Assembly (NCBI GenBank): GCA_050735975.1
Contig: JBOHVS010000376.1
Location: 2,986-66,985 of the forward strand
Source: Candidatus Binatia bacterium
Lineage (GTDB): Bacteria > Desulfobacterota > Binatia > UBA9968
Reading direction: 5' to 3'
DNA length: 64,000 bases
Part shown: positions 15,751 through 35,786 of the stretch, in pieces
How positions within the stretch are numbered: the stretch's first letter is position 1
Layout: each line of letters begins with the position of its first letter
Made by a program: the position numbers and the translations under genes
Notes under the pieces: model-generated
The model's database searches: none
What the model saw: the letters and a program-made list of their open reading frames with translations, nothing else
Told to the model about the DNA's origin: nothing

Positions 15751-16236
15751 TTAAGCTCCAAGCCAGGTAAAGACCACTCCTTCTGGAAACGGGAGATTGA
15801 GCAGCCTTACGAACAGCCCGTAGAATGCGAGCCAAGCGAAAACTGTCAGACCCAAGGAAATTCCCCAGCCTTCCCGCGACTGGATTTTAAGGTATGAGAA
15901 GACGAGCAAAGGGATTGTAATAGAGAATCCCAGCAGCCAAATGCCGATAAAAAAGCCAAAGATCCAAGAGAATATGTTAATCGCGCGGCGCCGGGCCGTA
16001 ACCGGGTCGACTCCCTTGGTGAACTGGAAGTCCATGGGCGTGGCGCCGGAAGGCTCTTTCCTTACGAACCCCTTCAAGTCAAGGACGACTTGGACAAAAG
16101 CCAAGATCACCATCGGAATTCCAATGGCCCAGGGATAGAGTCGCGCCTGCGGTCTCCATTCCATTGACATGTAGACCCACACGATGAAAAAAACCAACCA
16201 AACAAGGCTGAAAATGGCTCGCGGTCTCAGCTTCAA
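15751..16236 (-). CDS. tctB: Tripartite tricarboxylate transporter small permease TctB
   Basis: 161 aa with 4 TM segments, upstream of tctA on the same strand. TTG start with SD AGGAGGA 5 nt upstream. Confidence 0.7.
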   Translation of the reverse strand: MKLRPRAIFSLVWLVFFIVWVYMSMEWRPQARLYPWAIGIPMVILAFVQVVLDLKGFVRKEPSGATPMDFQFTKGVDPVTARRRAINIFSWIFGFFIGIWLLGFSITIPLLVFSYLKIQSREGWGISLGLTVFAWLAFYGLFVRLLNLPFPEGVVFTWLGA

Positions 16237-17324: not shown

Positions 17325-18374
17325 TCACGCTGCGAAACGCACCTGTGCCGGATTGAGCGCGCCGTGCTTGGCTTTGTTCGCTGTAATCTCCAACGATTCG
17401 GGAATCTTCTCCATCCCTTCGAGCTTATGGGTGATCATCGGATCTATGCTGATTCGTTTTTGCGCGATCAAACGGGCGGCAAGGACCATTTGTTTAGGGG
17501 TCGCCAATTCCGGCGGAAACATATAGGTGACCTTCTTGGCTCGCAGATAATTGAAATCGAGGGTCACCGGCTCGTGAAAGTGAGGGATGCTCAGGATCTT
17601 TCCACCTGGCGCCACGCAAGCGACGGCGTCGGTAACGGTGGACCCGCCGGAGAGTCCCATCTTCGGGCTGCCGCTGGCGGCTTCGATGACAAATGGCGCG
17701 CCTTTGCCGTCCGTGATCTCCATCACTCGCTCGACGACGTTCTCCTTCGATGCGTTGATGGTGATATCGGTTCCAAGTTTGCGGGCCATTTCCAGGATGT
17801 CGTCTCTGCGATCTACGCCGATTATGGTGTCGGCGCCTGCGGCTTTGGCCGCCTGCGCGCAGTTGAGCCCCATGACGCCTTGTCCCAAGACGAGTGCCAC
17901 GTCACCCAACGTGATCCCGAGCGCCTGCACGTTGAAAATGCAGCTGGTGAGCGGCTGGATCGCCGCGACTTCCCAATCACTGACGCTTTCCGGCATTTTT
18001 GCGAGCGCATCCAATGGCACCGCGGCGCATTCCGAAAAGCAGCCGGGAAAGTCTCTGCCAATCGTTCCAACATGCGTATGGGTGGCGCCGACCCGATCGC
18101 CCACACGCAAGCCGTACTCGTTCTTTTCGTCGACATCCACGATCTCGGCGCAGAACTCATGTCCGAACAGTTGATGCGGTCCTTTAGCCAAAGCTTTTTT
18201 GACTTTATCGTAGCTGTTGGAGCGCTCGCCATAGAAGAGTTGGACTTCAGTCACCGAGGGTTGGACGACTTTTGTTTTGACGACCGCCCAGCCGGGCTTG
18301 AGATCAGGGTAAGGAACATCCTCAAGCCGCATTTCGTTGAAGGCGTGGGTCACCCAACCTCGTATGGTCTTCAT
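17325..18374 (-). CDS. Zn-dependent alcohol dehydrogenase (MDR superfamily)
   Basis: GHEFCAEIVDV (catalytic Zn region) and Rossmann motif VLGQGVMGLNCAQAAKAAGA. Confidence 0.8.
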   Translation of the reverse strand: MKTIRGWVTHAFNEMRLEDVPYPDLKPGWAVVKTKVVQPSVTEVQLFYGERSNSYDKVKKALAKGPHQLFGHEFCAEIVDVDEKNEYGLRVGDRVGATHTHVGTIGRDFPGCFSECAAVPLDALAKMPESVSDWEVAAIQPLTSCIFNVQALGITLGDVALVLGQGVMGLNCAQAAKAAGADTIIGVDRRDDILEMARKLGTDITINASKENVVERVMEITDGKGAPFVIEAASGSPKMGLSGGSTVTDAVACVAPGGKILSIPHFHEPVTLDFNYLRAKKVTYMFPPELATPKQMVLAARLIAQKRISIDPMITHKLEGMEKIPESLEITANKAKHGALNPAQVRFAA

Positions 18375-18671: not shown

Positions 18672-19868
18672 ATGGATTTTTGTCTTTCACCCGAGGAAGA
18701 AAGCCTGCGTCGAAGAGTCGAACAGTTTGTTCGCGACGAGCTGATTCCTCGGGAGCCGGAGTTCGAAAACGCTCCGGATATCTTCGAAGGCAGTCGATGG
18801 AAGAGCCGCGCCAAATTGAGCCGCGATCCAGAAATCAAGCGCTACGTCGAGATCATGGAGGAATTGGAAAAGAAAGCGGAAGCCAAAGGATTATGGTCTC
18901 TCGACGTGCCAAAGGAATTTGGCGGGGAGCAAGTCAGTAATGTTGCGATGATCGCTATCACGGAAGAGCTGGAGAAGACTTCGATCCCTTTTGAGCTCGG
19001 CAATCACGTCTCGAATATTCTTTATAATTGTAAAGACCACCAGAAGGAGAAGTTCCTTTGGCCCTGCATCCGCGGCGAGAAGACATCCGCTTTCGGGCTT
19101 ACCGAGCCGGCATCCGGCGCGGATCCCTCCATGCTGCAGACTACCGCGACGCCGGACGGAGATTACTTCATCGTCAACGGCACGAAGATGTTTCCAACAT
19201 TCGCCGATGTCGCGGATTTCGTTCAGCTGTTCGCCCGCCTGCCGGGCACTCAGGGGCGCGAAGGAATCACCTGTTTTCTGATCGAGACAGGGACGCCGGG
19301 CTATCGTGTTGTGCGCAGCATTGCCACCATCGCCGGGACCGAGCCCTGTGAGCTCGTATTCGAGGATTGTAAGGTTCACAAGGATCAGGTCCTCGGCGAA
19401 ATCGGCAAAGGCTGGCAGTTGAACCAGGCTTGGCTCGGCGCCAGACGTTTTCAGGTGGGCATCCGCGCTCATGGACAGTCCCATCGAGTTTTGCGCTGTG
19501 TAGCGGGGTTGCTGCGCGGTGATCCCAACGATACCGGGCGATTCGCGCAGCCGCTCGGACGTTTTTTGGGAGAACTGGAGACGCTGCGAGCGCTTACGTA
19601 TTTCGGCGCTTGGAAGGCGGACCAGAAAATGGACGTTCGTTGCGAGGCCGCCGGCGTGAAACTGTTTGCGACGGAGCTGTTGCACAAAGTCGTTGATTTT
19701 GGCTTGGAAGTGGCCGGAGCTGCGGGGCTGCGAAAAGAGCATGTGCTGGCCCGAGCCTTCCGGCATGCAAGGGCCAGGCGCATTGTCGAGGGGCCGTCGG
19801 AAATCCAGCGCCATATCATCCAGCGCGCGCTGTTTCGGGAAGGAATCGCCATGATGGAGTTGCCGTAA
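18672..19868 (+). CDS. Acyl-CoA dehydrogenase (catalytically complete)
   Basis: FGLTEPASGADPS, NGTKMF, and the C-terminal RRIVEGPSEIQRHII with Glu at the MCAD catalytic position. Confidence 0.9.
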   Translation: MDFCLSPEEESLRRRVEQFVRDELIPREPEFENAPDIFEGSRWKSRAKLSRDPEIKRYVEIMEELEKKAEAKGLWSLDVPKEFGGEQVSNVAMIAITEELEKTSIPFELGNHVSNILYNCKDHQKEKFLWPCIRGEKTSAFGLTEPASGADPSMLQTTATPDGDYFIVNGTKMFPTFADVADFVQLFARLPGTQGREGITCFLIETGTPGYRVVRSIATIAGTEPCELVFEDCKVHKDQVLGEIGKGWQLNQAWLGARRFQVGIRAHGQSHRVLRCVAGLLRGDPNDTGRFAQPLGRFLGELETLRALTYFGAWKADQKMDVRCEAAGVKLFATELLHKVVDFGLEVAGAAGLRKEHVLARAFRHARARRIVEGPSEIQRHIIQRALFREGIAMMELP

Positions 19869-19945: not shown

Positions 19946-21073
19946 ATGGATCTTAAATTAAGTGAAGAAGAAAAACTCGTCAGAGAAACTGCCGCGCAAT
20001 TCGTTTCACGCGAGCTGATCGCCCGTGAGGGCAGATATCTAAAGCAGGAGGAATCTTTTTTGCCGCCTGGCGACCCGCCGCGCCGTGAGCTCGATCCGGA
20101 AGTTCGAGCGACCCTCGCGAGGGTTGCGAAGGGCATCGGTCTTTGGGCGCTGGAGCTTCCGCCGGAGGCGGATAGCCCGGCGCCAAGCGCCATGGCGCGC
20201 GTCTTGATCTATCGCGAGTTCGGCCGAACCATCCTGCCTTTTGCGCCTCCGTATATTCCAGCCTTGATGGCGAACCATGCTCACGCGGAAGCACTTGCGG
20301 ATGGTGAGATGTCTCTCGCGCTTGCCTTCGATCAAATTCATAAGAGTGGGACCCCGGGCGGCGTCGAGACGCGGTTCCGTCCAACGACGGAAGGTTATGT
20401 CTTGAGCAACTCCGACGTTGAGGCGCTCGATCCGGCTGTGGATCTTTACCTGTTGCCGGCACGGGAACAGGGCACCAACCGCGTGTGTCTGTTCTTGCTG
20501 CGCCGCGACACCCGTGGGTTCTCCATTGGCGACGAGGTCGATCTTACAACGGATTCGACGGTTGCGAGACTGACGTTGCGCGACTGCAGGGTGCCGGCGG
20601 ACGCTCTCATAGGCTATGAGTACGAAACCGCCGCGATCGTCGCCAGCGAACAGTTGCGGATCGCCGCCCGTTGTTTGGGGATTGGGATGCGTTGTCTGGC
20701 AGATTCTATAGAGCATGCGCGCAACCGTATAACGTTCGGCCGGCCGCTGGCCGCCCGGCAGTCTATCCAGTGGATGCTGGCGGACTTGTCCATCGACTTG
20801 GGCACCTGCACGTGGCTGACCCTGGAGGCGGCCTGGCGCGCCGATCAAGAACGGCCTTATTTCATGGCAGCCGCTCTGGCGAAGAAGAGAGCCGCCAAAA
20901 TGGCCTTCGAGGCGGCAGACACGGCAATCCAAATACACGGCGGATACGGAGTTTGCAAAGAGTTCCCGTATGAAGGGTTCTATCGGGAAGCGCGCTTGCT
21001 GCGGCTGCTTTACGGACGCGAAGCGGAACTGGACCGAGCGATCGGGGAAAAGTTTCTAAAGGCTGAAAGTTGA
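19946..21073 (+). CDS. Acyl-CoA dehydrogenase-fold protein with degenerate FAD/substrate motifs
   Basis: The ACAD C-terminal helical domain is recognisable (ITFGRPLAARQSIQWMLADL, IQIHGGYG). The TEPxxGSD motif is replaced by AFDQIHKSGT, and the YEG Glu position reads LLYGREAE (Tyr). Confidence 0.8.
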   Translation: MDLKLSEEEKLVRETAAQFVSRELIAREGRYLKQEESFLPPGDPPRRELDPEVRATLARVAKGIGLWALELPPEADSPAPSAMARVLIYREFGRTILPFAPPYIPALMANHAHAEALADGEMSLALAFDQIHKSGTPGGVETRFRPTTEGYVLSNSDVEALDPAVDLYLLPAREQGTNRVCLFLLRRDTRGFSIGDEVDLTTDSTVARLTLRDCRVPADALIGYEYETAAIVASEQLRIAARCLGIGMRCLADSIEHARNRITFGRPLAARQSIQWMLADLSIDLGTCTWLTLEAAWRADQERPYFMAAALAKKRAAKMAFEAADTAIQIHGGYGVCKEFPYEGFYREARLLRLLYGREAELDRAIGEKFLKAES

Positions 21074-21133
21074 TGATTTCCATTCTCGAGTTTTCAGTCC
21101 AGTAGAACTCGAGAGTGTTGGAAAACCTGTTTA

Positions 21134-21297
21134 CAGGCCGGTCAAAAAGATCTCAGATGCGAGGCGCGCATTCCGAGCAGATTGGGAAGGCTGAGGCCGA
21201 GCTTAACCTTAACCTCAAGCAGCGAGTGGAACGAGCGCAACGCCTGCCTGTGCGGCGCACGCAGACAGGAAGCGGGTGAGTCTTTTTCAACGCCCTG
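21134..21297. repeat. Composite: R1 arms enclosing R10 and R2 modules
   Basis: Left arm CAGGCCGGTCAAAAAGATCTCAGATGCGAGGCG, internal GCTTAACCTTAACCTCAAGC and CGCCTGCCTGTGCGGCGCACGCAGACAGG, right arm TGAGTCTTTTTCAACGCCC. Confidence 0.75.
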
Positions 21298-21308
21298 GGA
21301 GGGAGACC

Positions 21309-22460
21309 ATGCGACGTAAGAACGTGTGCTTCATAAGCTACGGTTCGACAGAGTATTCGAGGAAATCCGAGGACTCGGTGTTGACCCACTATGCAAATGC
21401 CATACGCCAGGCGCTGCAGCGAATCGGTCTGCACAAAAAAGAGATCCAGGGGCTTTCGATTACGACGCAAGCGAGTCCCGATTTCTCGCCGCACGTGGCC
21501 GAGCAACTGGGACTGGAACTGGATTGGGTGTTGAACGGAGATTACGGCGGGGCCGGTGGCGTTATGAGCGTGCGCCGGGCGGCGGATGCGATCGAGGCGG
21601 GCCATATCGAGATGGCGGTGCTTGTCGGCGGCAACTCGTTCGATAAGAGCGTCCCGCACCAGCGGCCGCTGGAATATCAGCGCGCTAACTATGTGGATGT
21701 TTATGGTTACGGCGGGCCCAATAGCCTCATGGCGCTGATTCAACGCCTGCATATGGAGCAGTACGGGACGATCATCGAGCAGATAGGAAAAATTGCCTTG
21801 GCCCAGCGTTACAACGCGCTGAACAATCCGCAAGCGTTGTTTCGCGAACCGATGAGCATGGATGATTATTTGAATTCACGGATGATCTCCGATCCGATTC
21901 GTCTCTTCGATTGCGTGATGCCATGCTCGGGCGCCGAATGCATTATTCTCGCCTCCGAAGAAAAAGCAAAGAAGATCACCGATAAGTTGGTCTATCTGGT
22001 CACTGACGCGGAGAGGGTGCATTATCAGGTCGGCAACATGGCGCCGGATAAGACGACGTTTGGGACGAAAGTGGTCGGCGATCGTCTCTTCAGCGAGGTT
22101 AAACGGGAAGATATCGATCTATTCGAGATCTACGACGACTACCCGATCGCGGTCATGATTCAGATCGAGGATCTCGGCTATTGTAAAAAAGGCGATGGGG
22201 GAAAGTTTGTCGATTCCCACGACTTGACCTATAAGGGCGATTTCCCTGTGAACACCGGCGGAGGCGAGCTTTCGGTCGGACAGGCAGGTTTAGCCGGCGG
22301 TTTCCTTCATATTGTCGAAGCGCTGCGTCAGCTGAGGGGCGAGTCTGAGGGGCACCAGGTACAGAAAGCCGAGCGCGCGTTGGTAACCGGTATCGGTTGG
22401 CTAAACTACGGGCGTAATCTCGGCACCACGGCTGGCTTGGTCATCGAAAGGAGAAAATAA
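21309..22460 (+). CDS. Thiolase-fold protein, SCP2/Ltp-type, lacking canonical catalytic residues
   Basis: ATG at 21309 after GGGAGGGA. The upstream part of ORF 21276 lies in a repeat. SCP2-thiolase-like C-terminus ...ALRQLRGESEGHQV..., but the Cys/His positions are substituted (see findings). Confidence 0.8.
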   Translation: MRRKNVCFISYGSTEYSRKSEDSVLTHYANAIRQALQRIGLHKKEIQGLSITTQASPDFSPHVAEQLGLELDWVLNGDYGGAGGVMSVRRAADAIEAGHIEMAVLVGGNSFDKSVPHQRPLEYQRANYVDVYGYGGPNSLMALIQRLHMEQYGTIIEQIGKIALAQRYNALNNPQALFREPMSMDDYLNSRMISDPIRLFDCVMPCSGAECIILASEEKAKKITDKLVYLVTDAERVHYQVGNMAPDKTTFGTKVVGDRLFSEVKREDIDLFEIYDDYPIAVMIQIEDLGYCKKGDGGKFVDSHDLTYKGDFPVNTGGGELSVGQAGLAGGFLHIVEALRQLRGESEGHQVQKAERALVTGIGWLNYGRNLGTTAGLVIERRK

Positions 22461-22897
22461 TGGCGGAATCAAGTCAGCCAAAGAAGAGTTTGCCCAAGAT
22501 CAATCCTATCGATCAACCCTACTGGCAAGGCGCCGCGGCCAGCAGGCTCCTGCTGCAGAAATGTAAGGATTGCGGCAAGCTTCAGTTTTTTCCCAGGCCG
22601 GTCTGTCTAGATTGCTTCAGCGGCAATCTCGAGTGGGTGCAAGCGTCGGGCAAGGGCAAGATCCACAGCTTTACCTGGGTGCGCGTGCCGCGCAGTCCGG
22701 CGTTTAAGGGAGAGACCCCGATTTGCTACATCAACGTTATCCTCGATGAAGGAGTCATCATGGAAAGCCGCCTCCTTGGGAACGGGGCGGAAGGAGTCAA
22801 GCTCGGCGACCGGGTGAAAGTCGCTTTTCAGGAGACGCATGATCCCGCAATCAAGTTGCCGGTGTTTGAGCTGGAGGGGCAATCCGCGCGGGAATGA
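22460..22897 (+). CDS. DUF35 OB-fold / Zn-ribbon protein (thiolase partner)
   Basis: Start overlaps the upstream stop (TAATG). Zn ribbon CKDCGKLQFFPRPVCLDC followed by an OB-fold segment. Confidence 0.85.
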   Translation: MAESSQPKKSLPKINPIDQPYWQGAAASRLLLQKCKDCGKLQFFPRPVCLDCFSGNLEWVQASGKGKIHSFTWVRVPRSPAFKGETPICYINVILDEGVIMESRLLGNGAEGVKLGDRVKVAFQETHDPAIKLPVFELEGQSARE

Positions 22898-23733
22898 CGA
22901 TAAGCAGCGTATTCAACCGGCACGCTGGAAAGGTAACAATGGTATTCCAACATTTACTGTTTGAAGTTCGCGATCAGGTAGCGTTCGTGACATTTAACCG
23001 ACCGGAGTCGATGAACGCGTACAACCGGCAGATGACGCGGGAGCTGATCGACGTGTGCAGGCATTGTGAGGGGGAGAGCGGGATCCGCGCGGCGATTTTT
23101 ACGGGAGCAGGCGACAAAGCTTTTTCCGCGGGGATGGATTTAAAGGAGCGGGCCGAAGCTCCCTTTTCGTTCATCGAACGACGTTATCAGAAGCTTGCCG
23201 CGACCATCTATACCCAGGCGCGCGCCGTGGCGGCTATCACAAAGCCGACCATTGCGGCGATCCGCGGATACTGTCTGGGTGGAGGTCTCGAGTTCGCGCT
23301 CGCGTGCGACATGCGGATTGCGGCTGAAGACGCCAAACTCGGGCTCACGGAAGTTCGGCGCGGGCTTATACCAGGGGCAGGCGGCACGCAAAGGCTGGCG
23401 CGCCTGGTAGGCACGGCCAAAGCATTGGAGATTTGTCTAACCGGCGACGCCGTGAGCGGGAGCGAAGCGTACCGATTGGGTCTTGTAAATGCGGTAGTGA
23501 CCCCGGATGCGGTGCTCAAAACGGCGGAGGATCTCGCTAACAGAATTCTTAAGGGAGCGCCGATGTCGGTAGCGTTTATCAAGGAAGCCATCAACAAAGG
23601 CATCGAGCTGCCGCTGGAACAAGGGCTTCGACTCGAAGCGGATCTGTCCGCCCTCGTTGCCACAACGGAAGACAGCAAGGAAGGGCCGCGCGCGTTTGTT
23701 GAGAAGAGAGAGCCGGTGTGGAAGGGAAAGTAA
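22894..23733 (+). CDS. Enoyl-CoA hydratase/isomerase (crotonase)
   Basis: VTFNRPESMNA, TGAGDKAFSAGMDLKE, GYCLGGGLEFALACD, GLTEVRRGLIPGAGG. ATGA overlap with DUF35. An alternative start at 22939 is possible. Confidence 0.9.
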   Translation: MTISSVFNRHAGKVTMVFQHLLFEVRDQVAFVTFNRPESMNAYNRQMTRELIDVCRHCEGESGIRAAIFTGAGDKAFSAGMDLKERAEAPFSFIERRYQKLAATIYTQARAVAAITKPTIAAIRGYCLGGGLEFALACDMRIAAEDAKLGLTEVRRGLIPGAGGTQRLARLVGTAKALEICLTGDAVSGSEAYRLGLVNAVVTPDAVLKTAEDLANRILKGAPMSVAFIKEAINKGIELPLEQGLRLEADLSALVATTEDSKEGPRAFVEKREPVWKGK

Positions 23734-23737
23734 ACAA

Positions 23738-23854
23738 TTTTGGATTTTCGATTTTAGATTTTCGATTGTCGGGGAATCAATCAACTCCAAATTCCAAAGT
23801 TTGTTCCGGAGTGTCTTGGCTATAATCTAAAATCCAAAATCAAAAATCTAAAAT
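23738..23854. repeat. Family R5 palindrome (AATCTAAAATCCAAAAT)
   Basis: Arms TTTTGGATTTTCGATTTTAGATTTTCGATT and AATCTAAAATCCAAAATCAAAAATCTAAAAT. The 17-mer at 23824-23840 is identical to 35754-35770. Confidence 0.8.
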
Positions 23855-23865
23855 GGAGTGAGTGA

Positions 23866-24681
23866 ATGGAGAGTCAGAAAGTTCTTTACGGCGTTAAAGA
23901 CAAAATTGCATGGATCACGTTGAGTCGGCCGGAATCCTTGAATGCCGTCAATCAGGAGATGCAAAAAGATATTATCAAGTTTTGCCGAATAGCGAACGAG
24001 GATCGGGAGGTTCAAGTCGTCATTTTCAAAGGAGCCGGAGAGAGGGCGTTTTCCGTCGGAGGCGACATAAAGGACCGGGCAAAGGCGAACGCCGAGGCCG
24101 GCGCAGGGCGGGAATCGCCGCTGGCGAGTAGACAAGCAAGGTTTACTTCCGGTATCCGGACACCTCCGCAAGCCATAGCAGCTCTCAACAAGGTCTCGAT
24201 CGCGTTAGTTCACGGCTATGTGATCGGGACGGGATTGTTGATGAGCCTTGCCTGCGATATCCGTATCGCCGCGGACAATGCCAGATTGGGGCTTAGCGAG
24301 GTCCGTCTCGGATTCATCCCGGCGTCAGGAGGGACACAGCGGATGGCGCGCCTCGTGGGCATTCCGAAAGCCCTGGAGATTTGTCTTTCCGGTGAACTTT
24401 TTGACGCGCAAGAAGCTTATCGAATCGGTCTCGTCAATCAACTGGTCGCCTATGATCAGTTGATACCGGCGGGTGAAAAAATGGCGCAATCCTTTATCAA
24501 AGGCGCTCCACTGGCAATGCGTTATATCAGGGAAGCGATTTACAAGGGAAGCGACCTTTCGCTGGAGCAAGGACTTCGATTCGAATCCGATCTTGCCGGG
24601 ATGGTGTCGAACACCGAAGATGCCAAGGAAGGGCCGCGCGCATTCGTTGAGAAGCGGCCGCCGGTGTGGAAAGGCAAGTAA
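23866..24681 (+). CDS. Enoyl-CoA hydratase/isomerase (crotonase), tandem paralogue
   Basis: ITLSRPESLNA, GAGERAFSVGGDIK, GLSEVRLGFIPASGG. The C-terminus KEGPRAFVEKRPPVWKGK is nearly identical to the upstream paralogue. Confidence 0.9.
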   Translation: MESQKVLYGVKDKIAWITLSRPESLNAVNQEMQKDIIKFCRIANEDREVQVVIFKGAGERAFSVGGDIKDRAKANAEAGAGRESPLASRQARFTSGIRTPPQAIAALNKVSIALVHGYVIGTGLLMSLACDIRIAADNARLGLSEVRLGFIPASGGTQRMARLVGIPKALEICLSGELFDAQEAYRIGLVNQLVAYDQLIPAGEKMAQSFIKGAPLAMRYIREAIYKGSDLSLEQGLRFESDLAGMVSNTEDAKEGPRAFVEKRPPVWKGK

Positions 24682-24685
24682 GAAG

Positions 24686-24816
24686 ATAGAGACAGAGACA
24701 GAGAGGGGATTCTGAATACTGGCTCCTGAGTAAAGAGAGACAGGAGCCGACAGAAAGATATGGACGGAGATGAAGAGGGAAGAGCGCGACGTTCCGAAGT
24801 GTTCTGTCTCTGTCTG
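24686..24816. repeat. Family R7 (AGACAGAGACAGAGA)
   Basis: AGAGACAGAGACAGAG at the left end, reverse-complementary CTGTCTCTGTCT at the right end. Confidence 0.75.
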
Positions 24817-24825
24817 GAATGAGTT

Positions 24826-26382
24826 ATGAGTCATTCGTTATTGATGGGCGACGGCTTGCGCCGCAACGCCTATAAATTTCCTGTAAAAATGGCCGCGCGC
24901 GATCGTTACCGCCAAATTACCTACGGCGATTTGAACCGTAGAGTGAATCAGCTCGCAAACGGGCTGCTCTCGATGGGCGTTCGCAAGGGCGACTCGGTTA
25001 CTGTGCTGGCAGGAAATCGCATCGAGCATTTGGAAGTTCTTTTCGCGACTGCCAAGATCGGCGCATTGGCGATTCCGCTCGATATCAAATGGCGCGCGCT
25101 TGAGCTGGGTTCAGTGTTGTCGTTTTTCAAACCGCGCGTGCTGATTTTGCAGGACGAGTGCGTTGGTGAGTTCAAAAAGGCAAGGGCGTCGTATGACCTC
25201 AACTTCTTGAAAACCGTCGTCACATCAGACTTGAATTATGGCGGCTTGCTCGGAGGCCAGAGCGTAGCGGAGCCGCCGGTAAAGGTCAATGAAGATGATC
25301 CGTTTGCCGTGCTGCTCACCTCCGGTACTACGGGGTTTCCCAAGGGATGCCTCGCCAGCCACAGGACTTTCGTTTTTCACTGCATCAACAACGCCATCGA
25401 GAAAGGGCTTGGTGTTCACGACCGCGCAATCCTCGGGTCGCCTATCTACTTCAACGCGGGCCGTTCGTTCACCTTGGCGATCATCTACTATGGCGGCACG
25501 ATGTTTCTTCACGAGCGATTTGACCCAGAAGAGATTCTCAAAACTATCGAACGCGAGAAGATTACCTATATGGGCGCGGTGCCGACGATGTGCGAGCGCA
25601 TGCTGCAGGTCCCGAATGTAGAGCACTACGACACGAGCTCTCTGCGATGCCTTGCCATCACAGGGGGGAAAGTGCATGAGCCGATCCTGCAGGCGCTCAG
25701 GAAATACATCACTCCGAACATCTATCGGACCTACGCCTCCACCGATTCCGGGCAGATGGCGATTTCGAAGCCGGGAGATATCGAGACAAAACCACTGGCT
25801 GCGGGCCGTCCGGTTTGGTGCGTTGAATTGCGCGTCGTGGATGACAATAACAATCCAGTCGCGGTGAACGAAGTCGGCGAGATCGTCTGCCAGAGCCCGC
25901 TGGCGACTCAGGGCTATTATATGAACCCCGAGGCAACCAACGCGGCCTTCCGCGACGAGTGGTTCTACACGGGCGATCTCGGCTATTTCGATGAAGAAGG
26001 GTACTTGTTTGTCGTCGGGCGCAAGAAAGACATGGTCAAGAGCGGCGGCATCAGTGTTTATCCTTTAGAGATCGAAGGCGTTCTTTATAAGCATCCCGAG
26101 GTTGTCGAAGCGGCGGTGATCGGCGTGCCGGATCCGCAGTGGGGCGAAGCGGTCAAGGCCGTGGTCACCCTCAAGGAGGGATCGCGAACCACCGGCGAGG
26201 ATCTCATAGGTTTTTCCAAGGAATGGTTGGCGCCCTACAAGGTTCCCAAATCAGTGGACATCGTTTGCTCATTGCCGCACACAGAGACCGGAAAAGTAGC
26301 GAAGGAAAAACTCAAGGAAGCAATTCTCAACCAAACAAGCTTAAGACCGGACCGAGATAACTTGAACTCTAATCGAAGGTGA
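24826..26382 (+). CDS. AMP-forming acyl-CoA synthetase/ligase
   Basis: AMP-binding motifs LLTSGTTGFPKG, YGGTM, FYTGDLGYFDEEGYLFVVGRKKDMVKSGG. Confidence 0.9.
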   Translation: MSHSLLMGDGLRRNAYKFPVKMAARDRYRQITYGDLNRRVNQLANGLLSMGVRKGDSVTVLAGNRIEHLEVLFATAKIGALAIPLDIKWRALELGSVLSFFKPRVLILQDECVGEFKKARASYDLNFLKTVVTSDLNYGGLLGGQSVAEPPVKVNEDDPFAVLLTSGTTGFPKGCLASHRTFVFHCINNAIEKGLGVHDRAILGSPIYFNAGRSFTLAIIYYGGTMFLHERFDPEEILKTIEREKITYMGAVPTMCERMLQVPNVEHYDTSSLRCLAITGGKVHEPILQALRKYITPNIYRTYASTDSGQMAISKPGDIETKPLAAGRPVWCVELRVVDDNNNPVAVNEVGEIVCQSPLATQGYYMNPEATNAAFRDEWFYTGDLGYFDEEGYLFVVGRKKDMVKSGGISVYPLEIEGVLYKHPEVVEAAVIGVPDPQWGEAVKAVVTLKEGSRTTGEDLIGFSKEWLAPYKVPKSVDIVCSLPHTETGKVAKEKLKEAILNQTSLRPDRDNLNSNRR

Positions 26383-26404
26383 GAAAGGTCGCGAACAACA
26401 ACGT

Positions 26405-27271
26405 ATGGATTTGGAGCCGAGAGAACACTATTTCATTCATGATGGCTTAAAGCTTCATTATTGGGAGTGGGGAGATCCTAAAGCGGAAACTTTTGTTTTC
26501 GTCCATGGTATCCGGGATCAGGGCCGGAGCTGGGAGCCGTTTATCGCTTCGATGATGGCGTTAGGTTGTCCCATCAAACATGCAGTCGCGCTTGATTTGC
26601 GCGGGCATGGCGACAGCGAGTGGCCTAACACGAGTCGCGGCTATCAACATGAAGACTTTCTTACTGACTTGTCAGGTCTGCTGCGCCACCTGGACAAAGA
26701 AACTTTGACTCTGGTCGGCCATTCTCTTGGCGGGAGCATGGCGCTGCTCTACGCCGGAACTTTCCCGGAAAAAATCAAGCGCATGGTGTTGCTTGAATCA
26801 CTCGGCCCGTTTGCGCGCTCCGATGACGAGGTGCCGGAAATTATGGCCGAAAGGTTGGATGGAAGGAACTATATCGAGATACCTTATCCGTATGCGTCGT
26901 TAAAAGACGCCGCCAAGGCGCTGCAAAAAAGATTTCCCCTCATCCCCGATCGCGCGGCGGCGCACATGGCTCTGTACGGGACGAGAAAAAATGGACAAAA
27001 CTATCGCTGGAGGCATGATCCGATCCTTCGCTATCGCACAACGACCATGCTCTCGGAGGGTCAGATCGAAGCTTTCATTCGACGGGTTAAATGTCCGATT
27101 CTATTTGTTTACGGCACCGAAAGCGATTTCATGCAATCGGTGCGCGGCCCGCGCGCGAAGCATTTCAATAACGCCCGGATAGTTCCGATTGAAGGCGCGG
27201 GTCATCACATTCCGCACGAGAAGCCGGACGAGGTGGCGAAGGTTATTGCGCCGTTTCTGTTTCCTGATTAA
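26405..27271 (+). CDS. Alpha/beta hydrolase
   Basis: HGIRDQGRSW oxyanion region, nucleophile elbow GHSLGG, C-terminal GAGHHIPHEKP. Confidence 0.85.
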   Translation: MDLEPREHYFIHDGLKLHYWEWGDPKAETFVFVHGIRDQGRSWEPFIASMMALGCPIKHAVALDLRGHGDSEWPNTSRGYQHEDFLTDLSGLLRHLDKETLTLVGHSLGGSMALLYAGTFPEKIKRMVLLESLGPFARSDDEVPEIMAERLDGRNYIEIPYPYASLKDAAKALQKRFPLIPDRAAAHMALYGTRKNGQNYRWRHDPILRYRTTTMLSEGQIEAFIRRVKCPILFVYGTESDFMQSVRGPRAKHFNNARIVPIEGAGHHIPHEKPDEVAKVIAPFLFPD

Positions 27272-27422
27272 ACAAAAACCCATCCAGGCGGCCCTGAGCA
27301 GAGTCGAAGGGTTGCGAGCTTTTCTTAAAGATCTCCGGTCTTGGTCCAAAACGCTTTCTTTGTTATGGTGCGACCTATCCATTTTACGATCAGTGCCGCG
27401 ACTTGACGTTTGGAGGTGAACC

Positions 27423-28238
27423 ATGGTCGAGATGAAAACCGTTTTAGAAAAAATCGATGAGGACTCCGGAGTCGCGTGGTTGACGTTAAACCGACCCGAA
27501 AGGAAGAACGCCATGAGCCGGAATCTGATTGCGGAGACGATCAGCATTCTCAAGGAACTGCGCGACAACGATAGAATTCGCTGCATCGTAACGACCGGAG
27601 CGGGAAATTCCTACTCTTCCGGGCTGGATCTCTATGACCTGAGGGAAAGTTGGAAGCGCAAGAGGAGATGGGACGAAGGGGGTTCGACTTATGAGATCGT
27701 CAAGTTGCTGCGCGCGTGCCCGCAAGTCACGGTTGCGGCCGTCAACGGTTGGTGTCTGGGCGGTGGCATGGCTCTGTTAAATGGGCACGACCTTGCGGTG
27801 GCCGCCGAATCGGCGATGTTCGGCATGCCGGAGATCATTCGGGGCAGCTATGGCGCTGTTGCAACGTCTACACTTTTCCACACAGGCATACCCTTCAAGA
27901 AAGCTTTCTACATCCAGTTAACAGGGAGAAATCTCACAGCAACTGAGGCGGAAAGAATCGGACTCGTTTCCCAGGTAGTGGCTGATAATCAACTGCTGCC
28001 GTACGTCGAGGCGCTGGCGAAAGAAATCGGCTCTCGAAACGGCGCGACTTTGGAGAGCGCAAAAATCGCGGCCTATATGGAAAAGGATATGGATTTTGAC
28101 ACCGCGCTTCGCACCGACGATCTCGTTTCGCACCGAATGAGGTATTACACCAATCCGTTAAGTGACGTGGAAGGCTACCTCCATTCTCAGAAGGGCGGCG
28201 GGAGCACGCGATATGTGAAACCGGAGGATAGAAAGTAA
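27423..28238 (+). CDS. Enoyl-CoA hydratase/isomerase family protein
   Basis: LTLNRPERKNAM, NGWCLGGGMALL, FGMPEIIRGSYG. SD GGAGGTGA upstream. Confidence 0.85.
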   Translation: MVEMKTVLEKIDEDSGVAWLTLNRPERKNAMSRNLIAETISILKELRDNDRIRCIVTTGAGNSYSSGLDLYDLRESWKRKRRWDEGGSTYEIVKLLRACPQVTVAAVNGWCLGGGMALLNGHDLAVAAESAMFGMPEIIRGSYGAVATSTLFHTGIPFKKAFYIQLTGRNLTATEAERIGLVSQVVADNQLLPYVEALAKEIGSRNGATLESAKIAAYMEKDMDFDTALRTDDLVSHRMRYYTNPLSDVEGYLHSQKGGGSTRYVKPEDRK

Positions 28239-28293
28239 CAGCGAGGAGCGGTTTGTCAAAGATTTTACTGGCTGCTCGAACATAGGACTTGAA

Positions 28294-30690
28294 ATGGACA
28301 AAGCGCCTCAATTTCTTAGCAGTTATAGAGCGCTGGACTTAACCGGCCTCGCTGGGCAGCTTTGCGGCCGTGTGCTGGCTGATCTTGGAATGGAAGTTAT
28401 AAAGGTCGAGGGGCCCGGCGGCGATCCAGTTAGAAGATTGGAACCTGTCGCGGAGTTAGGCGGGACTTCCTTAAGCCTTCCATTCGCTCATTTGAACGCC
28501 AACAAAACGAGCATGGTGCTCGATCTCCAAAATGCCCAAGGGCGAGAGACGTTCTTGCGTCTGGCCGAAAATGCTGACGTGGTTCTTGAGAGCTTTTCGC
28601 CGGGATTCATGGATTCGCTGGGCTTCGGGTACAAGCAGCTCGCGGAGGTTAATCCGCGGCTGGTAATGGCCTCGATCACCGGCTTTGGTCAAACCGGTCC
28701 AGGCAAGAACTACCCTTGCGCTGATATCGTCGCGGCGGCGATGGGTGGGCTGATGTATATTTCAGGGGATCCATCATTGCCTCCGTGCAAGGCGCCGGAA
28801 ACACAAGCTTACTACTTCGGCAGCCTCTTCGCCGCGATAGGGGTATTGGCCGCTCTGTACCATCGCGAGCAGTGCGGTCGCGGGGACTACGTCGACGTGT
28901 CCATGCAGGAGGCCCTGGCAACTCACGAGCATCTCATACGCCTCTACGCAAACGAAGGTCAAATCGTCAGACGGCAAGGGAGCCAGCACGGGCAGGTGGC
29001 CCCGGCGAGAATTTTTCCCTGTAAGGATGGGTATGTCTATCTATATGTTACGCGCCAGCATTGGAAGCTTTTTCTTGAGCTTTGGACTGGTCATCCGGTA
29101 GAGATGGACGGCGCGGAATGGGCGAACAATTTATACCGGCGGGCGCGCGTCGAGCAGATCAATCAACTGGTCTCGGAATTTACGAAGCAATACACGAAGG
29201 CAGAACTGACGGAGCTGTGCCAGGCGCGCGGTCTTCCGTGCACTCCCGTTAACAGGCCGGGTGATTTTATCCGCGACGAACAGGTTCGGACGCGCGGCTT
29301 TGTCTCGGAGATTCAATATCCTTTCGGCAAAGTCGAGCAGGTGGCGGCGCCGTTTCTAATAAACGGCAGCCGGCCGGAAGTGAGGCCGGCGCCCGCTCTC
29401 GGCGATTGCCAGCACGCGGCGCAGAATCGAGATCGCAATTCAGCGGAGCAAATGACAGCCAACGCTGCGAATGGTGGCGCGGGTGCGAGCCCTCCGTTGA
29501 AGGGAATGAGAATCGTCAGCTTCGATCATGTTCTAGCGGGTCCTTACGGCACGACGATTCTGGCCGAGCTAGGCGCCGACGTGATCAAGGTCGAATCCCG
29601 TAAGGGCGGATTGGACCCGTTCAGATTTTTCGGCACGGGCGAGGATCCGAATCTCTCTCCTCGGTTTCTCGAATTCAATCGCAACAAGCGATCGATTACA
29701 GTGAATCTCAAGACTGCCGATGGGCCAAAGATCATTCTAGACTTGGTGCGCCATTCGGACGCCGTGCTCGATAATTACAGCGTGGACGTTATGTCTAAAT
29801 TTGGGCTGGGCTACGACGATCTTTGCCGCGCCAGACCGGATATCATCAATTTGAGAATGCCCGGACTCGGCTGCACGGGTCCGAAGCGATACTACTCTAC
29901 TGTCGGCGTGAACATCACCGCATTCACTGGTCTGACCTATCTCTGGAATCATCCGGGCAAAACCAATCCACCGATCGGGTCGCAAACGGTCTTTCCCGAC
30001 TACGTCTCGGGGGTGCTGGCAGCGATCTTGGTCGTGGCGGGCGTTTTATACCGCAAACGGGCGCAAAAGGGCGCTTTCATCGACATGTCTCAAGGCGAGG
30101 TGACGGCCTATATGATCGGCGCGAGCCTGATGGAGGCAAAGGCTTTGGGCCGCGAGCCCGAGCCCATGGGCAACCATTCCGCGTTTGCGGCGCCGCATCA
30201 CTGCTACCCTTGTAAGGGAGAGGAACGTTGGTGCGTCATCGCTGTCGAGAATGAGGAACAGTGGCGCTCGCTGGCTGAAACTCTCGGCCAAGACGTCGAG
30301 CGCGATCAACGATTCAAAACCGTGGAGCAGCGGCTTCGGCATCGGGACGAGCTGGACGCTCTGATCGCGCAATGGACCCGAGAGAGGGACTGCTATGAAG
30401 TCATGCGCGCTCTGCAGAGAGTCGGCGTTCCCTGCGGTGTCGTGCAGAACGGCGCCGATTTGACCGCCGATCCTCATCTTAGAGAACGAGGTTTCATCAT
30501 CGGAGTCGAAAATGCGAGGCTGGGACGAGTGGTGTTGCCGAGTTTTCCGCTACGATTCGCCAACGCGAAATTAGATCCGAGATGGGAATTCCCGGAGCTC
30601 GGGCGTGACAATGAAGCGGTGCTGCGCGACGTCCTCGGCTACACCGGTGAAAAGATCGAGGGGCTTGCCACCAGGAATGTGTTGGCATAG
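28294..30690 (+). CDS. Family III (CaiB/BaiF) CoA-transferase, tandem A-B two-module fusion
   Basis: 798 aa. Module A is about residues 1-375 and module B about 400-798, joined by a low-complexity linker (...NRDRNSAEQMTANAANGGAGASPP...). Each module has the N-terminal Rossmann-like (L/V)xDLxxxxAG / GxxVIKVE signature. Confidence 0.9.
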   Translation: MDKAPQFLSSYRALDLTGLAGQLCGRVLADLGMEVIKVEGPGGDPVRRLEPVAELGGTSLSLPFAHLNANKTSMVLDLQNAQGRETFLRLAENADVVLESFSPGFMDSLGFGYKQLAEVNPRLVMASITGFGQTGPGKNYPCADIVAAAMGGLMYISGDPSLPPCKAPETQAYYFGSLFAAIGVLAALYHREQCGRGDYVDVSMQEALATHEHLIRLYANEGQIVRRQGSQHGQVAPARIFPCKDGYVYLYVTRQHWKLFLELWTGHPVEMDGAEWANNLYRRARVEQINQLVSEFTKQYTKAELTELCQARGLPCTPVNRPGDFIRDEQVRTRGFVSEIQYPFGKVEQVAAPFLINGSRPEVRPAPALGDCQHAAQNRDRNSAEQMTANAANGGAGASPPLKGMRIVSFDHVLAGPYGTTILAELGADVIKVESRKGGLDPFRFFGTGEDPNLSPRFLEFNRNKRSITVNLKTADGPKIILDLVRHSDAVLDNYSVDVMSKFGLGYDDLCRARPDIINLRMPGLGCTGPKRYYSTVGVNITAFTGLTYLWNHPGKTNPPIGSQTVFPDYVSGVLAAILVVAGVLYRKRAQKGAFIDMSQGEVTAYMIGASLMEAKALGREPEPMGNHSAFAAPHHCYPCKGEERWCVIAVENEEQWRSLAETLGQDVERDQRFKTVEQRLRHRDELDALIAQWTRERDCYEVMRALQRVGVPCGVVQNGADLTADPHLRERGFIIGVENARLGRVVLPSFPLRFANAKLDPRWEFPELGRDNEAVLRDVLGYTGEKIEGLATRNVLA

Positions 30691-30734
30691 AAGCGAATGA
30701 GCCAAGCAAACGTAAATCCGCAAGGAGGTGTCGG

Positions 30735-35778: not shown

Positions 35779-35786
35779 GGGAAGTA

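Follow-up and report, generated by a model that had tools for sequence, protein, structure and literature searches.

The thiolase-like gene at position 21309 of the window (the whole 64,000-nucleotide stretch that we analysed) encodes, as judged from alignments and a predicted fold, an aldolase-type thiolase-fold protein that is neither a thiolase nor Ltp2. The host is an uncultured soil/cave bacterium of the Binatia. The protein belongs to a large uncharacterised branch of the superfamily, in which Asp stands where the aldolase Sal has Cys and Ltp2 has His. On balance, we favour the reading that this protein and its DUF35 partner (THL-DUF35) form a heteromeric Tyr/Asp retro-aldolase, which would cleave a 3-hydroxyacyl-CoA in a β-oxidation-like pathway, probably one for a non-steroid acid.

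The thiolase-like open reading frame spans 21276-22460 on the forward strand. We took ATG 21309 as the most plausible start because it follows a Shine-Dalgarno-like sequence and gives the length common to all close homologues. The features of the gene pair, all on the forward strand, are as follows.

21297..21305, +: Shine-Dalgarno-like GGGAGGGAG, read from the sequence, 3 nt before the thiolase-like ATG
21309..22460, +: thiolase-fold, Cys-less "YDD-type" protein, 383 aa (Pfam, PDB sequence matches, AF2, Foldseek, clade analysis)
21549-21551, +: codon for Gly81
21879-21881, +: codon for Arg191
22131-22142, +: codons for Tyr275-Asp276-Asp277-Tyr278
22266-22268, +: codon for Glu320
22281-22283, +: codon for Gln325
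22460..22897, +: DUF35 partner, 145 aa, Cys4 zinc ribbon and OB fold (Pfam zf-ChsH2, OB_ChsH2_C)

The initial annotation of this DNA had described a TAATG overlap with a DUF35 zinc-ribbon gene, and both are real: the TAA lies at 22458-22460 and the ATG at 22460-22462, with GGAG 7 nt upstream, and the partner carries its Pfam domains and a CxxC-x10-CxxC site (C35/C38/C49/C52). The DUF35 stop in turn overlaps the start of the following gene (ATGA). The arrangement is not due to chance: 30 related genomes span the junction, and in almost all of them the offset between the thiolase-like and DUF35 genes differs by no more than a few nucleotides. A DUF35 gene abuts or overlaps downstream in the window, in 29 Binatia-type loci, on an Ochrobactrum plasmid, in Ruegeria pomeroyi, in pDB1 and in metagenomic representatives; in distant clade members the two genes overlap by 4 nt or are separated by 1 nt. 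The contigs of the distant metagenomic members, 1.5-4.5 kb long, show the DUF35 pairing and one Zn-dependent alcohol dehydrogenase (Zn-ADH) only. The DUF35 protein of the window is free-standing rather than the tail of a MaoC hydratase, and its best PDB match is 9myr_B, the DUF35 domain of CtShy (E 3.2e-21), followed by 6ok1_B, ChsH2(DUF35).

The larger protein is an SCP2-type thiolase-fold protein. Thiolase_C_1 was its sole Pfam match (E 2.7e-34), and NCBIfam models for acetyl-CoA acetyltransferase, lipid-transfer protein and thiolase domains all scored under their cut-offs. The AlphaFold2 model was confident (pLDDT 91.4, pTM 0.93), and when it was searched with Foldseek, the top 50 matches were all thiolase-fold proteins (TM 0.79-0.88). 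Together with the alignment of Arg191 to the CoA-binding Arg216 of CtSal, these results place the protein in the thiolase superfamily, with its five-layer α-β-α-β-α fold and CoA site. The best Foldseek match was 9myr_A, the aldolase CtSal (E 1.2e-36, TM 0.88), and aldolases were the nearest PDB neighbours; by sequence, 4U4E came first, then 9MYR_A, with 6OK1_A (Ltp2) also matched.

We then examined the catalytic positions. The initial annotation had quoted four strings, DYGGAGGVMSVRRAADAIEAG, FEIYDDYP, SVGQAGLAGG and QLRGESEGHQV, all of which are present in the protein, and had read from them that every thiolase catalytic residue is substituted. HMMER alignments to solved structures bear this out. 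DYGGAGG aligns with EAACASG of the true thiolase 7YVY, which puts Gly81 at the nucleophilic Cys, and Gly81 aligns with the nucleophilic Cys of 6ESQ as well; EIYDDY aligns with EVHDAF, so that Tyr275 replaces the His of HDCF; and GQA aligns with GHP, with Gln325 in place of its His. The Cys of the SCP2 HDCF motif corresponds to Asp277, a position held by Ala in 7YVY and by Cys304 in the YDCY motif of CtSal. A MAFFT alignment of 114 sequences gave the same assignments. The protein therefore lacks the nucleophilic Cys of the CxS loop, the His and acid/base Cys of HDCF, and the His of the GHP loop; with the entire Cys/His catalytic set gone it cannot be a thiolase, in agreement with the initial annotation. 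A thiolase or acyltransferase using a different, relocated Cys nucleophile is barely credible. Five Cys residues are present (C7, C202, C206, C211 and C292) and Cys202, in an LFDC motif, is widely conserved in the family, but none of the five aligns with any thiolase catalytic position, the His residues that would activate a Cys are gone, and the LxDC Cys is also found in Ltp2, which is an aldolase.

To our knowledge, the characterised thiolase-fold aldolases number two, Ltp2 (2019) and Sal (2025), and their catalytic pairs differ, being Tyr/Tyr in Ltp2 and Tyr/Cys in Sal. Both are steroid side-chain retro-aldolases, and they are the nearest characterised relatives of the window protein. CtSal-CtShy(DUF35), the bile-acid C5 side-chain aldolase of Comamonas testosteroni (PDB 9MYR; Rolfe et al. 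2025, PMC12329534), is the closest solved structure by fold overall and the closest by sequence among characterised enzymes. Like the window protein, CtSal has Gly at the thiolase nucleophile position and a DUF35 partner, which it requires. Of the CtSal residues that have been probed by experiment (PMC12329534), Gly89, Arg216, Tyr302, Asp303, Tyr305 and Gln352 are kept as Gly81, Arg191, Tyr275, Asp276, Tyr278 and Gln325. In contrast, the essential catalytic acid Cys304 is replaced by Asp277, which could also act as a general acid; Gln347, which with Gln352 stabilises the Cys in Sal, by Glu320; the proposed oxyanion-hole residue Gln161 by Pro137, next to an invariant Asn138; and Tyr165 by Met141. 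In CtSal, the Ala, Ser and His variants of Cys304 were all inactive (the variant set did not include Asp), and the authors concluded that the thiol is specifically required (PMC12329534).

The initial annotation had interpreted the loss of the Cys/His set plus a DUF35 partner as the signature of Ltp2-ChsH2(DUF35), the steroid C3 side-chain aldolase of Thermomonospora curvata and M. tuberculosis (PDB 6OK1). The two systems do share a thiolase fold without the nucleophilic Cys, a DUF35 partner, and an operon with a pair of acyl-CoA dehydrogenases (ACADs) and a hydratase. The catalytic base Tyr294 of Ltp2 (in the YDHF motif of ILYDHF) corresponds to Tyr275. However, the Ltp2 catalytic acid Tyr344, in the GEAYIHG loop, aligns with Gly327 of GQAGLAGG, a longer, Sal-type loop; Ltp2 His296 aligns with Asp277; in the Ltp2 system DUF35 belongs to the MaoC hydratase ChsH2, whereas here it is separate and the hydratases are crotonases; and the window protein falls in another clade, in a neighbourhood free of annotated steroid-ring genes. 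The Ltp2 attribution is thus not upheld. The accompanying suggestion that the tyrosines of YDDY are significant holds for one of them: Tyr275 corresponds to the base Tyr of both Ltp2 and Sal (Tyr302), while Tyr278 corresponds to CtSal Tyr305, whose replacement by Phe lowered kcat only 7.6-fold (PMC12329534). Of greater chemical interest is Asp277, which by alignment occupies the site of the essential Cys304 of Sal.

In order to place the protein among its relatives, a neighbour-joining (distance-method) tree of 123 sequences was built with 40 bootstrap replicates. The 32 proteins with a YDD[YF]...GQ signature formed a pure clade in 39 of 40 replicates. This YDD clade is sister to, and not nested within, the clade containing CtSal. 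YDD[YF] is common to all 32 members, as is Gln at the GHP-His position, and the nucleophile position is Gly, rarely Ser; the window protein, whose signature is G/YDDY/EQ, groups among them and lies outside both the Ltp2 and Sal clades. In this tree and in an earlier neighbour-joining tree, Ltp2 of T. curvata fell outside the clade of the window protein; in the 123-sequence tree IpfD did so as well. We found no clade member that has been biochemically characterised or assayed in vitro.

Conservation within the branch is pronounced. Orthologues in 32 Binatia-type genomes are 81-89% identical, compared with 53-83% for neighbouring genes, making this the best-conserved gene of the cluster, and soil metagenomes contain close homologues in abundance (3251 matches at E <= 1e-20). 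None of 121 close homologues departs from YDDYP, Gly80/Gly81, Arg191 or Gln325, and the Asp equivalent to Asp277 occurs in all of them and in all 32 clade members. Tyr275 and Asp276 are invariant or nearly so across the wider family. Position 320 is more variable: 105 of the 121 have Glu and 16 have Gln, and E, Q, M, L or I occurs across the wider clade. At the sequence level, these data demonstrate strong purifying selection. The sequence is present in DNA runs (cave metagenome), and no identifiable RNA run contains it.

This pattern bears on whether the protein might be a catalytically dead thiolase relic that, with DUF35, scaffolds the neighbouring ACAD or hydratase enzymes, as archaeal DUF35 does for thiolase and HMG-CoA synthase. 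Such a role would account for the loss of all canonical catalytic residues, DUF35 scaffolding is documented in the archaeal and PhlABC complexes, and the DUF35 stop overlaps the start of the hydratase gene ECH1 in the window. We nevertheless consider it highly unlikely: a relic would not be expected to keep the polar residues Tyr275, Asp276, Asp277 and Gln325 and the CoA-binding Arg191 in every close homologue, to share a signature that defines a 32-sequence clade, or to be more conserved than any neighbouring enzyme. Nor is the coupling to ECH1 kept, since genes for solute-binding proteins intervene in other genomes.

The pair lies in a conserved operon, whose order in Binatia-type genomes is ACAD, ACAD, thiolase-like gene and DUF35, followed by crotonases and a CoA ligase. 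The genes around it in the window are listed below.

18672..19868, +: acyl-CoA dehydrogenase, first of a tandem pair, with complete N, M and C domains and a VEGPSE catalytic Glu motif (Pfam)
19946..21073, +: second ACAD-family gene, divergent in its N-terminal half; only the C-terminal Pfam domains are significant
22894..23733, +: crotonase-type enoyl-CoA hydratase ECH1, with both catalytic Glu motifs (GGGLE, LTEV; Pfam ECH_1, E 1.8e-69)
23866..24681, +: second crotonase-family protein, first catalytic Glu missing (GTGLL; Pfam ECH_1, synteny)
24826..26382, +: AMP-forming acyl-CoA ligase, the predicted activator of the free acid (Pfam AMP-binding, AMP-binding_C)
26405-27271, +: α/β hydrolase, in the less conserved cluster tail (Pfam/NCBIfam)
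27423-28238, +: third crotonase; best NCBIfam model, below its curated cut-off, p-hydroxycinnamoyl-CoA hydratase/lyase
28294-30690, +: fused double family-III CoA-transferase, in the less conserved cluster tail (Pfam/NCBIfam)

The first ACAD has a weak NCBIfam match to pimC_large and is syntenic at 71-81% identity in most related loci that extend far enough upstream. The second, with weak matches to pimD_small and IpdE2, is syntenic at 53-72% identity; its best PDB matches are homotetrameric ACADs, with weak matches to the β-type subunits Tcur3481 and 4X28_D, and it may serve as partner subunit in a heteromeric ACAD. For the pair as a whole, homotetrameric ACADs again matched best in the PDB and ChsE-type α/β subunits weakly, and both proteins seem to keep the catalytic Glu. 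ECH1 is found downstream of THL-DUF35 in most related genomes, usually past one to four inserted genes for solute-binding proteins. These insertions were uninformative as a pathway clue: of 10 scanned, nine encode solute-binding proteins (eight NMT1-type, one ABC_sub_bind) and one is an ORF without a Pfam match. The ligase is syntenic in most related genomes (NCBIfam matches all under cut-off), and the tail at 26405..30690 is present in only some related loci. By Pfam, NCBIfam and synteny, the conserved operon contains no 3-hydroxyacyl-CoA dehydrogenase and no true thiolase; it also contains no carboxylase, and its core no aldehyde dehydrogenase. A Zn-ADH lies at 17325-18374 of the window, another follows the pair designated P0122, and in R. 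pomeroyi DUF35 is fused to a short-chain dehydrogenase/reductase (SDR); recurring alcohol dehydrogenases and reductases beside clade members are expected if the product is a carbonyl compound.

Along the lines of the initial annotation, the protein could be a functional orthologue of Ltp2 or Sal, in an operon that degrades a sterol, bile-acid or hopanoid side chain. The best structural neighbours are the two steroid aldolases. The operon logic resembles that of the mycobacterial igr operon (ACAD pair, hydratase, aldolase plus DUF35), and there are weak, below-cut-off NCBIfam matches of the ligase to the steroid-24-oyl-CoA synthetase CasG and to FadD3, of ECH1 to EchA19, and of the α/β hydrolase to HsaD. 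However, among the annotated ORFs of the 64-kb window (about 50 of 71 ORFs of at least 150 aa, by Pfam or NCBIfam), which is rich in acyl-CoA metabolism, amidohydrolases and transporters, KstD, KshAB, HsaABCD and other steroid-ring genes are absent, so that a steroid pathway is not supported. The catalytic acids of both steroid enzymes (Ltp2 Tyr344 and Sal Cys304) are missing, the protein falls outside both of their clades, the hydratases are crotonases instead of MaoC-DUF35 fusions, and the characterised contexts in its own clade involve aryl-acetate-type side chains. We regard a steroid function as quite improbable.

Under the Tyr/Asp retro-aldolase reading, THL and DUF35 would form a heteromer, probably an α-β-β-α tetramer by analogy with Ltp2-ChsH2DUF35 and Sal-ShyDUF35, in which the Cys4 DUF35 subunit would stabilise the enzyme and shape the substrate cleft. 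The ligase or a CoA-transferase would activate an acid, the tandem ACADs would desaturate it, and ECH1, the predicted supplier of the 3-hydroxyacyl-CoA, would hydrate it. Arg191 would bind the CoA pyrophosphate, Tyr275 would act as the general base that deprotonates the β-hydroxyl, and a contact to that hydroxyl would come from the backbone NH of Gly81, where thiolases have their nucleophile. We infer that Asp277, in place of Sal Cys304, may protonate the acyl-CoA enolate, with Gln325 at the old GHP-His position lining the site. The retro-aldol reaction, with neither a covalent acyl-enzyme nor a CoA co-substrate, would yield an aldehyde or ketone plus acetyl- or propionyl-CoA, and this cut would replace the usual dehydrogenase and thiolase steps.

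A thiolase fold that has kept its CoA site and lost its nucleophile could also serve another thioester-enolate reaction, such as decarboxylation of a malonyl- or β-carboxy-acyl-CoA (cf. TbSLP and KS-Q domains), isomerisation or hydrolysis, and the Asp/Tyr pair could equally protonate a decarboxylation enolate. The structural neighbour TbSLP has malonyl-CoA decarboxylase activity, but only a very slow one; CtSal has none, and the authors of the CtSal study argue that TbSLP is itself an aldolase (PMC12329534). An enolate reaction of this kind seems unlikely, as the operon's ACAD and hydratase would make a 3-hydroxyacyl-CoA, there is no carboxylase, and the step assigned to IadG in Variovorax removes a C2 side chain from a β-hydroxy acid.

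The IadG comparison rests on a syntenic gene in R. pomeroyi rather than on the Variovorax IadG sequence itself. SPO_RS20480, on the megaplasmid of R. pomeroyi DSS-3, belongs to the YDD clade (VYDDYPV and GGQLSAGQAG; 36.6% identical to the window protein). Within an auxin-degradation cluster of the iadCDEFGHIJ type, so called because 8/8 genes are in matching order, it is the thiolase-family gene that occupies the IadG position, and a DUF35-containing gene follows it. We also looked there for MarR in order to confirm the published iad locus; the unannotated gap holds only IS remnants. In Variovorax, deletion of iadG leads to accumulation of dioxindole-3-acetic acid, whose CoA ester is a tertiary β-hydroxyacyl-CoA that cannot be oxidised to a 3-oxoacyl-CoA; iadG is thus genetically required for removal of the C2 side chain from a CoA-activated β-hydroxy acid (PMC12633357). 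In annotations and in the literature, IadG is treated as a ketothiolase (PMC12633357, PMC12852158). For a retro-aldol cleavage within the clade, the evidence is genetic and metabolomic and comes from IadG in Variovorax only (PMC12633357). By analogy, YDD-clade members sit where the chemistry calls for a retro-aldol step, as in the R. pomeroyi iad-type cluster. The contexts differ in that the iad (indole-3-acetic acid) substrate comes from a Rieske dioxygenase and an SDR, with DUF35 fused to the SDR in R. pomeroyi, whereas in the window an ACAD and a hydratase would supply it and DUF35 is free-standing.

A large, well-supported sister clade of Sal with an invariant Asp predicts a third catalytic solution. 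We speculate, as a doubtful extension, that the YDD clade is a third, mechanistically distinct class of thiolase-fold retro-aldolases with a Tyr/Asp dyad, general "side-chain clippers" that include IadG and the Binatia operon. If so, the clade's substrates would be acyl-CoAs with a β-carbon that is branched or in a ring. Auxin degradation would supply one example, IadG, whose present ketothiolase annotation would then be wrong; the Binatia enzyme would be another, with alicyclic, naphthenic or isoprenoid acids of soils and caves as its substrates. The operon might then hold the gene for an orphan activity of the (1-hydroxycycloalkyl)acetyl-CoA lyase type (EC 4.1.3.35). Genes of the clade that carry the annotation "acetyl-CoA acetyltransferase" or "thiolase family protein" are suggested not to be thiolases. 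This would affect how pathways are reconstructed in Binatia and in auxin catabolism, and could offer new C-C bond-forming and bond-cleaving biocatalysts.

Other known systems combine these elements differently. In the ibuprofen pathway of Sphingomonas Ibu-2 and Rhizorhabdus wittichii pIBU218, the Cys-less thiolase-like gene ipfD is followed by the DUF35 gene ipfE; the pair adjoins a CoA ligase and takes an acyl-CoA side chain off a ring carbon. We rejected IpfD as the closest functional relative, since it is Ltp2-type (YDAF...GFY, Tyr/Tyr), lies outside the YDD clade and is 30% identical. The best PDB sequence match, 4U4E (E 2.3e-51), is a "putative thiolase" of Sphaerobacter thermophilus from structural genomics with no function assigned; it too is Cys-less, with the Tyr present (YDSF), but it retains a GHP-type His (THPG), has Ser at the Asp277 position and falls in a separate clade. 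The DUF35-associated true thiolases, namely the benzoylsuccinyl-CoA thiolase BbsAB (7PXP) and the archaeal acetoacetyl-CoA thiolase/HMGCS/DUF35 complex (6ESQ, 7YVY), share the fold and the DUF35 pairing with the window protein. In contrast to it, they keep the nucleophilic Cys and the His residues. Relative to CtSal itself, whose DUF35 is a C3H1 domain fused to the MaoC hydratase Shy in a steroid context, the window system pairs a related fold with a free-standing Cys4 DUF35 and crotonase hydratases in a non-steroid setting.

The thiolase-like gene and its DUF35 partner lie on the same strand:

21309–22460, + strand: thiolase-like gene, 383 aa, ATG 3 nt after GGGAGGGAG
22460–22897, + strand: DUF35 gene, 145 aa, GGAG 7 nt upstream of ATG

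The two overlap in a TAATG, in which one base is common to the TAA of the first and the ATG of the second, and by sequence reading the stop of the DUF35 gene runs into the start codon of the gene that follows (ATGA). The sole Pfam match of the thiolase-like protein was the thiolase C-terminal-like domain, and its NCBIfam matches, from the 'acetyl-CoA acetyltransferase / lipid-transfer protein / thiolase domain' series, all fell far under curated cut-offs. The DUF35 protein contains both expected Pfam domains, zf-ChsH2 and OB_ChsH2_C, and a canonical CxxC-x10-CxxC site (C35, C38, C49, C52).

We aligned the thiolase-like protein by HMMER against all PDB sequences. Its DYGGAGG lies opposite EAACASG in the thiolase 7YVY from Pyrococcus, and opposite the corresponding stretch of 6ESQ, so that Gly81 takes the place of the nucleophile Cys. 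EIYDDY aligned with EVHDAF and EVHDCF, which puts Tyr275 in place of the His and Asp277 in place of the SCP2-type acid/base Cys; since GQA pairs with GHP, the GHP His is Gln325. Aligning the protein by MAFFT to 113 full-length representatives reproduced these columns. The three substituted strings thus lie where the initial annotation had placed them, with Gly81 and Gln325, not Cys and His, in the nucleophile and GHP columns. That the protein is a thiolase with a relocated Cys is extremely unlikely, as every catalytic column is without Cys and the activating His residues are lost.

Among PDB sequences, the thiolase-like protein matched best 4U4E (2e-51), a Sphaerobacter 'thiolase' without assigned function, followed by 9MYR_A (9e-49), 7YVY and 6OK1_A, which is Ltp2 (2e-35). 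Its AlphaFold2 model, built from a 60-sequence alignment, was confident (pLDDT 91.4, pTM 0.93), and Foldseek ranked 9myr_A first (E 1.2e-36, TM 0.88), then 4U4E and 6OK1. The DUF35 protein matched best 9MYR_B (3e-21), then ChsH2(DUF35), 6OK1_B. The structure 9MYR shows Sal-Shy(DUF35) from Comamonas testosteroni, an aldolase that acts on bile-acid side chains (Rolfe et al. 2025, PMC12329534). The catalytic residues of its CtSal subunit are Tyr302 and Cys304, both in a YDCY motif; Gln347 and Gln352 are proposed to stabilize the thiolate, Gly89 sits where thiolases have their nucleophile, and Arg216 binds CoA (PMC12329534). The Cys304 variants C304A, C304S and C304H were all inactive, Asp not being among them, and the steroid aldolase Ltp2 uses Tyr294 (YDHF) plus a different acid, Tyr344 (PMC12329534). 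The CtSal numbering was carried over to the window protein via the HMMER alignment.

Residues of CtSal and their counterparts in the window protein
CtSal Gly89: Gly81
CtSal Gln161: Pro137
CtSal Tyr165: Met141
CtSal Arg216: Arg191
CtSal Tyr302: Tyr275
CtSal Asp303: Asp276
CtSal Cys304: Asp277
CtSal Tyr305: Tyr278
CtSal Gln347: Glu320
CtSal Gln352: Gln325

By this mapping, therefore, the shared aldolase base and CoA anchor are kept in the window protein. Gly327 aligned with Tyr344 of Ltp2. The initial annotation had proposed an Ltp2-type aldolase and not a thiolase; our results bear out an aldolase-type, non-thiolase protein, but not its assignment to Ltp2, from which it differs at Tyr344 and in clade.

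A complete HMMER search through 1.84 billion cluster representatives gave 7144 relatives, and 384 of these reached E <= 1e-30. Among the 113 full-length top matches, nearly all lack the nucleophile Cys and read Y-D-x-[FY], where x is D, C, H, S, A, N, P or other. In neighbour-joining trees, which are distance-based and include partial reference sequences from HMMER output, 32 proteins that combine YDD[YF] with a Gln in the GHP position formed one pure clade (39/40 bootstrap replicates). Sister to this YDD clade was the clade containing CtSal, mostly YDC[YF] with Q/Q; the Ltp2-type sequences (short-loop Tyr) fell outside both, and the 4U4E-type sequences (YD[SA]F, His retained) were placed apart from them. 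Because it falls in the YDD clade, the window protein is neither Ltp2 nor Sal and belongs instead to an uncharacterised third branch. The literature searched yielded no assayed YDD-clade member. The 4U4E clade (with members such as P0172, P0214 and P0223) is itself sizeable, Cys-less, with YD[SA]F and a GHP-type His, and has a structural-genomics crystal structure without assigned function.

The closest proteins (85–92% identity) came from soil, groundwater and other metagenomes, and those with an NCBI name carried the label Candidatus Binatia, 'Deltaproteobacteria' or, now and then, that of another phylum. A sequencing-run search found the exact sequence in one cave metagenome run and no transcript data for the gene pair. 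Orthologues at 81–89% identity occur in 32 species-representative genomes, mostly labelled Binatia or 'delta proteobacterium'; the next matches are at <= 40%. The order ACAD-ACAD-thiolase-like-DUF35 is kept in related genomes, with start-to-start offsets equal within a few nt, followed downstream by an enoyl-CoA hydratase, a second crotonase and an AMP-forming CoA ligase. Often 1–4 solute-binding-protein genes are inserted before the hydratase, mostly NMT1/THI5-type periplasmic proteins and one ABC_sub_bind (related loci L002-L032, e.g. L014 11618-13788, L016 11980-14199, L004 11681-13754); in the window, by contrast, the DUF35 gene and the hydratase gene ECH1 overlap directly (ATGA). The thiolase-like gene is under selection and is the best conserved of the cluster in related genomes; 121/121 close homologues have the identical YDDYP, Gly80/81, Arg191 and Gln325. 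With its polar active-site residues invariant and its conservation the highest in the cluster, the protein is very unlikely to be a dead scaffold.

ECH1 retains both crotonase catalytic glutamates, and the conserved operon core contains neither a 3-hydroxyacyl-CoA dehydrogenase nor a true thiolase. The residue pattern, the clade, the synteny and the selection are direct results, and the reaction, the complex, the substrate and the role of Asp277 are inferred. In the best-supported reading, which we consider moderately likely, a ligase or CoA-transferase would activate the substrate, the ACAD pair and then the ECH1 hydratase would act on it, and a thiolase-like/DUF35 complex would end the four-step route by retro-aldol cleavage. 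The base for the beta-hydroxyl would be Tyr275, and Asp277 would serve as acid and protonate the enolate, giving a carbonyl compound plus acetyl- or propionyl-CoA. Other enolate chemistry, such as decarboxylation, is unlikely, since the operon has no carboxylase and would make a 3-hydroxyacyl-CoA. That the protein is a true aldolase of steroid or hopanoid side chains is quite unlikely: no steroid-ring degradation genes were recognised among the annotated ORFs of the 64-kb window, and both residues and clade differ. Alcohol dehydrogenases or reductases recur beside YDD members (a Zn-ADH at 17325-18374 in the window, a Zn-ADH after the pair of the metagenomic relative P0122, and a DUF35-fused SDR in Ruegeria pomeroyi), which fits the carbonyl product of retro-aldol cleavage.

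Paralogous modules of acyl-CoA catabolism crowd the surrounding region. Two crotonases of the cluster lack the first hydratase catalytic Glu (ECH2, 23866-24681 +, GTGLL; ECH3, 27423-28238 +, GGGMA; versus GGGxE), and the best NCBIfam model of ECH3, below cut-off, is p-hydroxycinnamoyl-CoA hydratase/lyase. In the second ACAD (19946-21073 +) the N-terminal half diverges strongly and gives no significant Pfam N/middle domain, and GREAE, which pairs with GTSE, seems to preserve the catalytic Glu position. PDB searches did not establish that the two ACADs form a heteromer, and the second may be an active enzyme or a partner subunit. At the cluster end, 28294-30690 (+) encodes a 798-aa tandem fusion of two complete family-III (CaiB/BaiF) CoA-transferase domains. 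Further crotonase and ACAD modules lie at 34758-36941 (+) and 41149-45870 (+), the latter with two single-domain family-III CoA-transferases (43296-44549, 44587-45870). Also present are four genes for amidohydrolases, three of them Amidohydro_2-type, together with components of TctA/TctB, TRAP and ABC transporters. GC skew is 0.08-0.12 over 20001-32000, where all genes are +, versus ~0.02-0.04 elsewhere, probably a coding-strand effect.

By tblastn of plasmids, YDD-type genes also occur in cultured bacteria at 36–42% identity. On the R. pomeroyi DSS-3 megaplasmid the order is reductase, Rieske alpha, Rieske beta, AMP ligase, thiolase-like (reading VYDDYPV), DUF35-SDR fusion, cyclase and SDR; no MarR gene was found beside it. 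This matches Variovorax iadC-D-E-F-G-H-I-J in gene content and order, the likeness to IadG being positional. The fusion, in the IadH position (L082 10125-11363 +, annotated 'SDR family oxidoreductase'), joins an N-terminal DUF35 (CxxC...CxxC zinc ribbon) to a C-terminal SDR, and thus physically tethers a reductase to the putative aldolase. In Variovorax, deletion of iadF, iadG, iadH or iadI leads to build-up of C10H9NO4, identified as dioxindole-3-acetic acid; the proposal is that IadF forms its CoA ester and that IadG, named 'an acetyl-CoA acetyltransferase', takes off the side chain (PMC12633357). As a tertiary 3-hydroxyacyl-CoA, dioxindole-3-acetyl-CoA is closed to oxidation to a 3-oxoacyl-CoA and thiolysis; removal of acetyl-CoA would chemically be a retro-aldol, which is our interpretation and not a claim of those authors. 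On the 2,4-D plasmid pDB1 a YDD member adjoins a CoA ligase, a DUF35 gene and a Rieske subunit, and on an Ochrobactrum plasmid a CoA-transferase. Ibuprofen IpfD, expected beforehand to be the nearest analogue, proved to be Ltp2-type (YDAF...GFY). Usually called a thiolase, IpfD (pIBU218 14640-15827 -) has Gly at the nucleophile position and Ltp2-type Tyr/Tyr, suggesting that it too may be a retro-aldolase. A second pIBU218 pair (1939-3503 -), Ltp2-like (YDHF) plus DUF35, adjoins a crotonase, a CaiB CoA-transferase and an alpha/beta hydrolase.

The thiolase-like protein is thus a member of the Sal-sister YDD clade, with Asp replacing the catalytic Cys, in a conserved non-steroid, beta-oxidation-like Binatia operon. 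The clade offers a clean, testable enzymological prediction and corrects a widespread annotation; it is not a new kind of system. Compared with the known aldolases, the window protein lacks the general acids of both Ltp2 and Sal: the Sal general-acid position holds a carboxylate, Asp277, in place of Cys304 of CtSal, and the proposed oxyanion-hole Gln161 of CtSal is not conserved.
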